Source: a virus
Virus genome (UHGV): UHGV-0099190
Length of the DNA: 14,776 nt
Reading direction: 5' to 3' (one strand)
Position 1 is the first letter of the stretch. The number at the start of each line of letters is the position of its first letter. Position numbers and translations under genes: made by a program. This document shows positions 1,065-11,732 of the stretch, piece after piece. The notes below the pieces were generated by a model. The model was not told where the DNA came from, did no database searches, and worked only from the letters and a program-made list of their open reading frames with translations.

Positions 1065-1514
1065 TTACTTAACCAATGATGCTGCATATTCGATAAGGTA
1101 AAGCTTTGGAGCCAGCAAAATTTTTAACCATGTCATATTGGTTACTGCACTAATAATAAAAATCCCCCACAGAGCCAAAACTCCAACTAATGGCATGATA
1201 AGAAGATTAATATCACCTTTGCTATCCCAAACCATTGTCGGCCTGTATTTGGGATTTCCCTTCTCCCATGAATATCCTTCATCACCGATTTTACCTGTCT
1301 CAACTCTTCGGCACTGCTTCTTCATAAACCAGAAAACCAGTGGGATTGTTAGAATGGCTATTAATGTTTTAATCAGACTGTCAACCATATTCCATAGCAG
1401 CAACTGATGAACAACATCAGGAATCTGCGCCTGGCTGAATGAAACAGCCGTGTCTATTCCATTGCTGGTTTTTTGCAGTAGTTCTACGAGAATCTTGTTT
1501 GCTTGTTCTTCCAT
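1065..1514 (-). CDS. Hypothetical inner-membrane protein (149 aa, two predicted TM helices); moron-like insertion, possible superinfection-exclusion function
   Basis: ORF with AAGGGG RBS; two hydrophobic segments (LIKTLIAILTIPLVFWFM and INLLIMPLVGVLALWGIFIISAV); AT-rich relative to neighbours; own downstream terminator; sits in the ral-ea10 gap, which I recall as short and gene-free in lambda. Confidence 0.65.
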   Translation of the reverse strand: MEEQANKILVELLQKTSNGIDTAVSFSQAQIPDVVHQLLLWNMVDSLIKTLIAILTIPLVFWFMKKQCRRVETGKIGDEGYSWEKGNPKYRPTMVWDSKGDINLLIMPLVGVLALWGIFIISAVTNMTWLKILLAPKLYLIEYAASLVK

Positions 1515-2609: not shown

Positions 2610-3386
2610 CTAGGCTACCAGAGACTCAATCCAAGAGTCTCTGGTATGGAATGGCAACACTCGTGCGGTATCATTAAATAGTAATGATAGTTGCTGTAGC
2701 TCAGGTGTTAACCCATCGCTGTCAACTATTACAAATCTATTGTTTATGTCAGGAACGACCTGACTTAAGTCAACAATCTTCCCAACTGTTGAGTGGGCAG
2801 TATTCCATCCCTTACTGCTGGCAAGGCTTACCGTAAACCCGCGTTTTGGTGGTATTAGTCGAGACTCATTCCTTAGCGTTAACGGAACAGTAATGTTATG
2901 CCCACTAATACCTTTCACTTTTTCCTTTAAGACTAGTCGCTTCCCAAGCCCTGCTGATTTTAAGTAACTGATTACACATTTTTCGAACTTATCGTCTTTG
3001 ACCTCAGCATACCAATCAGCAGTTTGGGCGGATGCAAGAATCCCACCACGAATAACATTTGCAGTTACCTGTCCAACGGACGACTCATCTGCCCACGCAG
3101 ATATCTCTCCAGAGTCATTTAATGAAATTCCTTGCGAAGCGAGTGATGACCTGATCAGATCAATTTTCTTTTTAGTCAGGTGGATGCCGCGTGATTCAAT
3201 ATTCATCAATGTATCGCAGTAGTCTGTAACCCTATACTGACCACTCATCTCTTGAACGAATACACTTATCTGCTCACAATCATCGTAGTATGTGAATGGA
3301 CTAATAACGCGCAGCAACGTGTCGCTCATTGGGTGGCATTCAAACCCGAGCTTAGATATGACTGTTGAACACGTTACATTTCCCAT
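2610..3386 (-). CDS. Hypothetical protein (258 aa), second gene of the cI-linked cassette in the rexB position; function unknown
   Basis: ORF whose ATG (3384-3386) overlaps the end of the upstream 180-aa ORF by 13 nt; AT-rich; no TM segments; no family I can recognise. An alternative start at 3329 (MSDTLL) is possible. Confidence 0.65.
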   Translation of the reverse strand: MGNVTCSTVISKLGFECHPMSDTLLRVISPFTYYDDCEQISVFVQEMSGQYRVTDYCDTLMNIESRGIHLTKKKIDLIRSSLASQGISLNDSGEISAWADESSVGQVTANVIRGGILASAQTADWYAEVKDDKFEKCVISYLKSAGLGKRLVLKEKVKGISGHNITVPLTLRNESRLIPPKRGFTVSLASSKGWNTAHSTVGKIVDLSQVVPDINNRFVIVDSDGLTPELQQLSLLFNDTARVLPFHTRDSWIESLVA

Positions 3387-3916
3387 GATAACTGACCTGA
3401 TTTATCTTGATTAGGTAAAGGTGGGCTGCCTTCATATATGATATTAAGCGCCTCGCAAAAATAATTCCAGTAGCCAAAAAAATCATCTGGCTTGATGTTC
3501 GTTTCAAGCTTAAGTGCAATTTCTTCCCCAGCTGATTCGAAGTACATGTGATAGTGAGGACCTCGAGCCACCTCAACAAAATCTGGATGGTTCACTATAG
3601 ATTTATTACGGTGTGGCTTGTTATCCGCAGGGTACGGATCAAGCGCGTAAATGCGCCTGTCATGAAGAAACATCACAAATGAAATCTTCACTATATCCAC
3701 CCCTTCAACGATAGGAGGACGCCAGTGAAGCATAAATCTTATGCCTGTGATTGGGTTGCCAATTTCATCAAAAGCTTTGAGATCCAATTTAAACCAGATT
3801 GGGGTTCGTCCCTCACTTCCGGTCCATGTAACTCCGCTAAAAGTTACTTTTTTCAAGCGAGTAATAGCTTGGTCAACCTCTTTCTGGGTAGGCTTAAAGT
3901 CGCCTTTTTTAGCCAC
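3374..3916 (-). CDS. Hypothetical protein (180 aa), first gene of the cI-linked cassette in the rexA position; function unknown
   Basis: ORF starting at GTG 3916 (in-frame TGA 9 nt upstream; GGTGA SD-like motif 9 nt upstream), 46 nt downstream of the cI stop on the same strand; no recognisable family; no TM segments. Confidence 0.6.
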   Translation of the reverse strand: MAKKGDFKPTQKEVDQAITRLKKVTFSGVTWTGSEGRTPIWFKLDLKAFDEIGNPITGIRFMLHWRPPIVEGVDIVKISFVMFLHDRRIYALDPYPADNKPHRNKSIVNHPDFVEVARGPHYHMYFESAGEEIALKLETNIKPDDFFGYWNYFCEALNIIYEGSPPLPNQDKSGQLSWEM

Positions 3917-3962: not shown

Positions 3963-4622
3963 TCACCCAAACGTCTCTTCAGGCCACTGACTAGCGATAA
4001 CTTTCCCCACAACGGAACAACTCTCATTGCATGGGATCATTGGGTATTGTGGGTTTAGTGGCTGTAGAAACACCTGACCGCTATCCCTGATCAGTTTCTT
4101 GAAGGTAAATTCATCACCACCAAGTCTGGCTATGCAGAAATCGCCGGGCTCAACAGCTTGCTCAGGGTCAACCAGAATTAACATCCCGTCAGGAAAACTG
4201 GGTTTGGAACCTGTTGGTGCGGTCATTGAGTTACCTTCAACCTCAAGCCAGAATGCAGAGTCACTGGCTTTTTTGGTTGTGCTTACCAATCTCTCCGCAT
4301 CGCCTTTGGTAAAGGTTCTGAGTTCTGGAGAGAACATCCCAGCCTGAACATGAGAAAATACAGGGTACTCATATTGTTTTTTAACTGGGGCCGATGAGTA
4401 TTCGCCAACAGGTGAAAATGTCCCGTCGTGGTTGAATGATATGTTATCAATACCAAGGTATTTAAACACCACACCAATATCACTAAGAGATGGATGACGA
4501 GATCCGCGCAACCAGTGTCCAATCCCACCCTGCGTCATACCTAGCTCTTCGGCTAACTTCTCTTGAGTTATGCCGAGCTCTTTCATTCTGGATCTAGCCA
4601 GTTCATACCATTTCATTTTCAT
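3963..4622 (-). CDS. cI: CI-type prophage repressor (219 aa): XRE-family HTH N-terminal domain plus LexA/S24-like autocleavage C-terminal domain
   Basis: Start ATG 4622 (MKMKWYEL) with AAGGA RBS; [24 protein letters not shown]; C-terminal domain from [14 protein letters not shown] to the end, including the Ala-Gly cleavage site, GNSM serine and FTFKKL lysine, matches lambda cI from memory. The track start at 4664 has no RBS. Confidence 0.85.
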
Positions 4623-4732
4623 GTCCTTATTATTACGCTCTGTACTGGAACCATCCATGCACAATGTGTATTTTTGCTTGTATTTTGAAAATACATATTG
4701 TATTTTTTATTCGAGGTTACTATGGAGGGCAT
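4623..4732. promoter_or_regulatory. oR/pR/pRM divergent control region with a perfect 17-bp palindromic operator candidate
   Basis: Perfect palindrome TGTATTTTGAAAATACA at 4679-4695; further TGTAT half-sites at 4667 and 4699 and inverted repeat ATACA-TAT-TGTAT at 4691-4703; lies between divergent cI and cro starts. Confidence 0.5.
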
Positions 4733-4948
4733 ATGAGCAACCTACGAAAATATCGAGAGTCACTGAATATCTCTCAAACAACACTTGCTAAGGCAGTTGG
4801 ATGCACACAGGGAGCTATCGGACATTGGGAATCTGGTCGTCGCTTCCCAGACCTTAAAACATGCCGTGCTCTTGTTGCGTGCCTAAATAAGTTAGGCGCA
4901 AAAGTAAGTCTTGATGACGTGTTCCCGCCGGAACACAAAGCCGCTTAA
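4733..4948 (+). CDS. cro: Cro-type repressor (71 aa, XRE-family HTH)
   Basis: ATG 4733 with GGAGGG RBS; HTH ISQTTLAKAVGCTQGAIGHWESG shares the recognition-helix motif TQGxIGHW with the adjacent cI, as expected for proteins binding the same operators. Confidence 0.8.
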   Translation: MSNLRKYRESLNISQTTLAKAVGCTQGAIGHWESGRRFPDLKTCRALVACLNKLGAKVSLDDVFPPEHKAA

Positions 4949-10222: not shown

Positions 10223-11305
10223 TTAGAACTGATACACCAGACCTACAGCGACGATGTCGTCGGTATCAATACCAGCTGTTTTGGTAAACTTACTATCGTC
10301 AATTAAGTTGATTTTGTAATCAACAAAAGTGGACATGTTTTTATTAAAGTAGTAAGTAGCACCGACATCGACATACTTGACTAAGTCTCGGTCACCATGA
10401 ACACCAAGGTCTTTACCTTTTGACTGAAGGTAAGCAACAGATGGTCGCAGACCGAAGTCAAACTGATATTGTGCTACTGCTTCAAAGTTTTGTGCTTTGT
10501 TTGCAATATGGTTATTACCAAAAACGGTCATATTCTGAGTTTCAGAATATGTGGTAGCCAGATAGATATTGTTCGCATCATATTTCAGGCCTGCAGCCCA
10601 TACTTCCGCATTTTTGCCGGAGGCATTGAATTTGCTCTTACCATAGGCGACCTGACCGTCAGTGCGATCTGATTTAGCATAGGTTGCACCCACGCCGAAT
10701 CCTTCATACTCATAAGTAGTGGAGAAACCGAAACCATCACCATTGGCTTCAGTTACGTCAGTGCGGTCATTTTTACCCTGATACTGAGCAGCAAAGTTCA
10801 GGCCATCGACCAGACCAAAGAAGTCGTTGTTACGATAGGTTGCAACACCAGTTGCACGTTTAGTCATGAACACGTCGGTTTGAGTCCAAGTGTCACCACC
10901 GAATTCTGGCAGGACGTCAGTCCACGCACCGATGTCGTATGCTACACCGTAGTTACGGCCGTAATCGATGGAGCCGTAGTCACCGAATTTCAGGCCAGCG
11001 AAGGCAAGACGGGTTTTATCTTTGGAGGAACCTTGAGATTCAGCGCGGTTGCCTTTGAATTCATATTCCCACTGACCGAAACCAGTCAGTTGATCGTTGA
11101 TTTGGGTTTCACCTTTGAAGCCAAGACGGGCATAAGTAGTATCACCATCATCTGCATCATTAGAGGAGAAGTAGTGCTTAGCATTAACTTTCCCGTACAG
11201 ATCCAGCTTGTTACTGTCTTTATTATAAATTTCAGCTGCCTGAGCAGACATCGCCATCAGTACTGATGCAGCTACAGCAGAAATTGCCACTGTTAATTTT
11301 TTCAT
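10223..11305 (-). CDS. nmpC: Outer-membrane general porin, OmpC/OmpF family (NmpC/Lc-like), with signal peptide; intact
   Basis: Start ATG 11305 ([23 protein letters not shown] / AEIYNKD...) with AAGGG RBS; C-terminal VGLVYQF beta-barrel signature; between Q and S as in DLP12 and phage PA-2; antisense to the late operon. Confidence 0.9.
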
Positions 11306-11732
11306 CGTGAGCCCTTTTTTTGAACTATTATTAAAAAATGATGTCACTGCGCGATAAATATTCATCTAATCAATGTGATTATTTCAAGATGTAAGTTTTG
11401 GTTTCTCGTTTGATTTGTGAAGTAGATCTCTATTTTTATCTGAACTTTTTTCTATCGAATCCTATTCATGGCTCTTGGCTGAATAAAAATAAATCTATTA
11501 GTCAATTTGTATTAACGGCTGTTATTTATAAGTGCTCTATAATTTGAAGGTTCAATTTAAACCGGCTAAAAATAACACTGGAAATTATTTGTTGGTTATT
11601 TGTTGAGATTTGCTTATGTATTTGTAGTGGTGTTTTCAATACTCGGTAGCATTCTCGCAAATATCATTTAGTGGTTTACGTACGTAAAAAATTGGTTATG
11701 CTGTTAAGAGTGGTTACTTCGTCACACAGCTT

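Follow-up and report, generated by a model that had tools for sequence, protein, structure and literature searches.

A known mosaic cI in the VT2-Sakai/Stx-phage immunity group: a DNA-binding domain of different specificity on a C-terminal domain of the lambda type

The cI gene in the window, the whole 14,776-nt stretch of the virus genome UHGV-0099190 that was analysed, very probably encodes a functional prophage repressor of the VT2-Sakai/Stx1-phage/Nil2/ev207 immunity group, whose two-part make-up arose by homologous recombination. Sequence comparisons support the joining, within the linker and by natural recombination, of an N-terminal domain of different specificity to a C-terminal domain of the lambda type. 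The window represents the early region of an Escherichia coli phage or prophage of the lambdoid kind, with its best phage matches in ev207, 2G7b and PhiR11_1 (96–97% over ~76%) and the gene order N, OL, two cargo genes, cI on the minus strand, cro on the plus strand, then cII, O, P and ren.

The cI gene occupies 3963–4622 on the minus strand (219 codons and a stop) and starts at ATG 4622 with MKMKWYEL, in a reading frame whose stop side lies at 3963 and which is open as far as TTG 4664. In the database it is annotated as 231 aa starting at ATG 4658, 12 codons upstream of ATG 4622. The lengths of the homologues (217–219 aa) favour ATG 4622, a start which, by analogy with lambda, would fit a short-leader or leaderless PRM transcript. 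ATG 4658 falls within putative OR2, and the 12-codon extension crosses OR3. Residues 1–83 (4374–4622) comprise the immunity-specific HTH DNA-binding domain and the first part of the linker, and residues 84–219 with the stop codon (3963–4373) form a lambda-homologous block that takes in the S24 C-terminal domain as well as the region of the cleavage site. Pfam searches assigned residues 11–58 to HTH_3 (PF01381, E = 2e-10) and residues 87–209 to Peptidase_S24 (PF00717, E = 1e-28).

The Ala-Gly autocleavage site proposed in a preliminary description of this DNA can be read directly in the gene. The codons GCT GGG of Ala94-Gly95 (4338–4343, minus strand) correspond to lambda Ala111-Gly112 in both the raw sequence and the alignments, and the pair lies within the motif VQAGMF, as in lambda. 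The Ser132 codon (4227–4229, minus strand) corresponds to the nucleophile Ser149 of lambda and the Lys175 codon (4098–4100, minus strand) to its general base Lys192, both by raw sequence and alignment. The two features that characterize self-cleaving S24 repressors, a Ser-Lys dyad and an Ala-Gly site in the linker, are therefore both present in cI.

Global alignment with the translation from NC_001416 showed that residues 84–219 (YEYPVF...EETFG) are identical to lambda cI residues 102–237 at 135 of 136 positions, without a gap, so that the almost complete match claimed for the C-terminal ~135 residues holds. A sequence search of the PDB returned the lambda repressor 3BDN as the top match (E = 3e-96), and over the same residues the alignment with the C-terminal fragment of lambda (8GMU, 2HO0, 1F39) is free of gaps. 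The sole amino-acid change in the block is Leu112 (4287–4289, minus strand), where lambda has Trp129 in mature numbering. Leu112 adjoins the cleavage-site region and is common to the Stx-phage and ev207 alleles, and Trp is kept at this position in the Br54 variant and in the compared relatives from other genera. The Trp-to-Leu change beside the cleavage-site region could alter the kinetics of cleavage or oligomerisation.

At the nucleotide level, BLASTN of the window against lambda 33000–42000 gave five blocks, one of which pairs window 3963–4373 with lambda 37227–37637 at 93.7% identity (26 mismatches in 411 positions, no gaps). The edges of this block coincide exactly with the Tyr84 codon and the stop codon, and identity falls to noise level beyond both. 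The joint, whose mapping the preliminary description had proposed along with an alignment to lambda cI, is thus placed at the Tyr84 codon by alignment and BLASTN alike. By the Nei-Gojobori method the 26 differences comprise 25 synonymous and one non-synonymous change (dS 0.35, dN 0.003), with about 28% of silent sites differing from lambda; the dN/dS of 0.009 places the block under very strong constraint at the protein level. The neighbouring lambda-like modules of the window, at 97–98% nucleotide identity, are closer to lambda than this block.

Upstream of the joint the resemblance to lambda drops abruptly. The 249 nt before Tyr84 are 27% identical to lambda, which is the random level, and the encoded domain is 18 residues shorter than its lambda counterpart and has no lambda N-terminal arm. 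The N-terminal ~80 residues had been described as unrelated to those of lambda; this was rejected, given that both domains belong to Pfam HTH_3 and pairwise comparison found 30% identity over 50 aa (E = 8e-8; about 20–30% overall). Judged from sequence, the N-domain is a distant homologue of that of lambda with the same fold. Its closer relatives occur in Citrobacter and other genera (68–83%), and more distant ones in Salmonella P22-like phages (~50%).

The repressor itself is an already known, very common and catalogued allele of the VT2-Sakai/Stx-phage immunity group. Its protein is 100% identical over 219 aa to the cI proteins of the Stx1-converting phage AP005153 and of ev207. Megablast against 50,697 phage records found the full-length gene in 62 of them at 98.5–99.2% nucleotide identity, isolated temperate phages among them; the carriers include AP005153, Stx2 phage II, Nil2, 1717, 2851, YYZ-2008 and the PA series, and ev207, ev017, 2G7b and PhiR11_1 are carriers of the non-Stx kind. 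The cI of AP005153, Stx2 phage II, Nil2, 1717, 2851, YYZ-2008, ev207, ev017, 2G7b and PhiR11_1 is the same protein as that of the window, apart from a few silent substitutions in the gene. For the N-domain alone, identity reaches 100% in 56 phage records and stands at 98.8% in VT2-Sakai (Sp5), which has the same N-domain type. A further 40 phage records, lambda and its relatives, match the C-terminal part only, at 90–95%. Among 5426 complete E. coli genomes the full-length gene was found in 776, about one in seven, and the C-terminal block alone in roughly 430 others; those of the latter matches that were listed all begin at query nt 250, the Tyr84 joint. Uniform similarity to a single known repressor had been named beforehand as a result that would refute a chimera. 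The comparison with AP005153 and ev207 gave exactly this result, so that the two-part make-up is no peculiarity of the window, yet the core of the domain swap is still supported, as the relationships of the two domains show.

The identities of 120 homologues were scored separately on each side of the Tyr84 joint. Relatives with the same N-domain from other Enterobacteriaceae (P0002–P0007) are uniformly diverged, with 77–83% identity in the N-domain and 79–85% in the C-domain, and others combine the same N-domain type (68–78%) with a clearly different C-domain (57–63%; P0028, P0031 and P0036–38). Relatives with the lambda-type N-domain are 63–70% identical to lambda in the N-domain and 80–86% in the C-domain. 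The C-domains of the window and of lambda, at 99%, are mutually nearest to the exclusion of their own N-domain families. Lambda-like C-domains (at least 79%) were found joined to at least four N-domain types, namely those of the window and of lambda, a ~50%-identical type from Salmonella and Enterobacter, and the type of 212–215-aa repressors. Such incongruence between the two domains requires recombination inside the cI gene.

A mosaic comparison of window 3963–4373 with E. coli loci (L001, L004, L005 and L006) refined this picture. The window block is 95.6% identical to the lambda-immunity allele of O121, 93.7% to lambda, 90.3% to the same-immunity allele Br54 and 86% to the lambda-immunity allele JEB8. 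The O121 allele equals the window over the 3' third, but its 5' part is like that of lambda and Br54. Interleaved and patchwise in this way, the C-domain alleles behave as a common pool open to recombination, which indicates repeated exchange instead of one swap. As for the natural domain swap at the linker that had been proposed, the sharp joint and the incongruent N- and C-domains bear it out, but more than one exchange is involved, a recent date does not apply, and lambda need not have been the source.

A single recent swap, the model implicit in the preliminary description, would have brought the C-domain directly from lambda into this phage or its immediate ancestor. It would account for the 135/136 amino-acid identity and would suit the other parts of the window that are 97–98% identical to lambda. 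It is nevertheless improbable, since the C-terminal block at 93.7% and dS 0.35 is much more diverged than those flanking modules, and with this silent divergence the block is not a recent copy of lambda itself. The same gene is moreover spread across hundreds of genomes and unrelated Stx phages, the wild lambda-immunity allele of O121 comes nearer to the window than lambda does, the alleles form a mosaic, and the donor could be either lineage. Silent divergence and the interleaving of mosaic alleles together led to the rejection of a single recent transfer from lambda.

Even less credence is given to an origin free of recombination, with the C-domain kept by purifying selection and the N-domain diverging fast in place under immunity selection. 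The dN/dS of the C-domain does reveal intense purifying selection, and the two N-domains are distant homologues of the same fold. However, a block with only about 28% divergence at silent sites directly adjoins upstream DNA of random identity (27%), and an 18-codon length difference lies upstream of the joint. Each N-domain type, furthermore, has its own deep family elsewhere with C-domains of 57–86% instead of 99%, and the C-domain alleles interleave between immunity types in a patchwise mosaic. An assembly or sequencing chimera at the junction can be dismissed, because independent projects yielded the identical junction, which is present in 62 phage records and in 776 complete genomes.

The cro gene (4733–4948, plus strand) encodes a 71-aa HTH_3 protein whose recognition region TQGAIGHW resembles TQGGIGHW of the cI N-domain, as the preliminary description had noticed in the form TQGxIGHW; the two proteins share 35% identity over 62 aa (E = 9e-13). 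AP005153 also has an annotated cro-type gene in this place. The divergent cI and cro genes flank three putative 17-bp operators (4631–4705) in the usual lambdoid arrangement, and three more (2367–2441) lie upstream of the N gene (1903–2259, PF25694). The annotation of AP005153 likewise lists six putative 17-bp operators, half of them at OR and half at OL; three of the six recur unchanged in the window, and the others deviate by 1–2 bases. Putative OR3 (4631–4647, TATTACGCTCTGTACTG) is identical to a putative operator of AP005153 and has a TAC-N5-GTA core, and putative OR2 (4657–4673, ATGCACAATGTGTATTT) is also identical to an AP005153 site. Putative OR1 (4689–4705, AAATACATATTGTATTT) has the TAC-N5-GTA core, is one base off the AP005153 operator, lies within a perfect 19-bp palindrome at 4688–4706 and overlaps the likely PR -10. 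On the left, putative OL1 is located at 2367–2383 (TAGTACGATATGTACTT), putative OL2 at 2392–2408 (CAATACGATTTGTTCTA, one base off the annotated AP005153 operator) and putative OL3 at 2425–2441 (TATAACACTTTGTATTT, two bases off).

The assignment of these putative operators is based on position, 17-bp spacing and the match to the annotated AP005153 sites. The TAC-N5-GTA core is present in most of the six and is only weakly enriched in the window (5 matches against 1.9 expected, with 10 of 200 shuffles reaching 5), and for the latter reason the core alone was rejected as a strong operator signature. As had been claimed for the operators, lambda-type 17-mers are missing: no lambda-type operator (TATCACCGCNRGNGGTA, up to 3 mismatches) was found anywhere in the window. 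The combination of the lambda N-domain with TATCACCGC-type 17-mers, which defines the lambda immunity group, does not occur here, where the N-domain is 19–23% identical to that of lambda, and the gene instead shares with the VT2-Sakai/Stx1-phage/Nil2 group the same N-domain, the same cro type and the same or nearly the same operators.

A scan of the window for consensus promoters found PL and neither PR nor PRM, with a total count at chance level. The leftward promoter-like site TTGACC-17-TACTAT (2394–2366) overlaps putative OL1 and OL2. The likely PR, read by eye only, has TTGCTT at 4674–4679. Two overlapping perfect palindromes were observed at 4679–4706, one of the form TGTATTTT-G-AAAATACA (4679–4695) and the other AAAATACA-TAT-TGTATTTT (4688–4706). 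The former is not among the annotated operators of AP005153 and overlaps the spacer of the likely PR.

A working scheme for the repressor can be proposed from these features. The HTH_3 N-domain would bind the six putative 17-bp operators of OR and OL (three each), sites that differ from those of lambda, and by analogy this binding would shut off PR and PL and establish an immunity distinct from that of lambda. The different N-domain and operators thus predict heteroimmunity to lambda and homoimmunity with the VT2-Sakai/Stx1-phage/ev207 group. The C-terminal 136 residues would provide dimerisation of the lambda style together with the cooperative tetramer and octamer contacts of OL-OR looping. 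Self-cleavage at Ala94-Gly95, stimulated by RecA* and carried out by the Ser132/Lys175 dyad, is expected from the near-identity to the lambda C-domain and would lead to SOS induction, and for the prophage as a whole an induction behaviour similar to that of lambda is suggested by the same analogy. Placement of the prophage in the VT2-Sakai immunity group also makes superinfection immunity against many Stx phages predictable.

The DNA encoding the C-domain is a conserved segment common to heteroimmune lambdoid phages and very probably serves as the left-hand homology arm of an exchangeable immunity module consisting of the N-domain, OR and cro, with variable cargo at the rex position bordering its other side. 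A conserved cI C-domain that bounds an exchangeable immunity module in this manner is a textbook case of lambdoid modular evolution. It is further conceivable, albeit rather doubtful, that near-identical C-domains let heteroimmune repressors form mixed dimers, tetramers or octamers in polylysogens or during co-infection and thereby couple prophage stability and induction, including that of Stx prophages, while the C-domain DNA acts as a crossover arm. If mixed oligomers did form, otherwise 'independent' prophages, Stx prophages included, would be coupled; if the shared C-domain DNA did act in this way, it would be a crossover arm creating new combinations of immunity and cargo.

Lambda cI (P03034; PDB 3BDN, 1F39, 2HO0) and the cI of the window have the cleavage region and C-domain in common (135/136), both consist of HTH_3 and S24 domains, and both genes are situated between the rex-position cargo and OR/cro. 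The window differs from lambda in encoding a Cro of the HTH_3 type instead of lambda Cro and in having neither rexA nor rexB. The phages of the AP005153 type share with the window the cro type and the same or nearly the same OR and OL operators, whereas the cargo downstream of cI is a DUF6978/DUF1828 pair in the window and consists of other ORFs in Stx phages.

The joining of lambda-like C-domains to different N-domains is a pattern already in the literature. Repressors of the epsilon34 gp46, SPN9CC and ST64T/L types resemble that of the window in combining a lambda-like C-domain with a distinct N-domain of the same broad class, but their N-domains are ~50–55% identical to that of the window and their C-domains ~80–86% rather than 99%, and their immunity is presumed from sequence to be different. 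The VT2-Sa and Stx-phage immunity papers by Miyamoto in 1999, Fattah in 2000 and Sato in 2003 reportedly discuss similarity to lambda CI. For the epsilon34 repressor, a C-terminal protease domain resembling those of lambda and HK97 has been described together with an N-domain closest to those of L, VT2-Sa and Nil2 (PMC2629481), and the operators proposed for epsilon34, WTACRAWWTGTAT, have a TAC...GTA core similar to that in the window (PMC2629481). Llarena et al. assigned to Clade I a CI that is identical between Eru2 and Eru3 Stx phages, with VT2-Sakai as the Eru3 representative, and gave 61% overall identity to lambda CI (PMC8951638), which is the value expected from a chimera of the kind seen in the window; the AP005153/ev207-type cI corresponds to this 'Clade I' CI. 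Experiments on the binding of lambda CI have also made use of VT2-Sa operators (PMC10742460, PMC9803871). In the full texts searched, the statements that bear on a lambda chimera are indirect (PMC2629481, PMC8951638), and none names this repressor explicitly as one.

Several further observations concern the genes around the immunity region. Two overlapping co-directional genes on the minus strand (2610–3916) occupy the place of lambda rexA/rexB. The first (3374–3916) encodes 180 aa with a weak DUF6978 match (phrog_2017) and the second (2610–3386) 258 aa with DUF1828 (phrog_1960), and the two show weak matches to a candidate defence pair of PADLOC, PDC-M24A (E = 4e-4) and PDC-M24B (E = 6e-7). 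Other alleles of the rex-position locus carry NYN-domain or DUF6932 cargo instead, and the full arrangement N, OL, cargo pair, cI, cro and cII was found in only 13 of the 5426 complete E. coli genomes. An ORF at 1065–1514 (minus strand, 149 aa, phrog_3054), for which neither Pfam nor PADLOC gave a match, lies within an insertion of ~490 bp that separates the lambda-homologous blocks of ea10 and ral. Another ORF at 10223–11365 (minus strand, 380 aa), between Q and the lysis genes, aligns with the annotated porin (OmpD/OmpC/NmpC) of ev207, 2G7b and 434 and is, by this resemblance, a predicted cargo gene of the lysogenic-conversion type.
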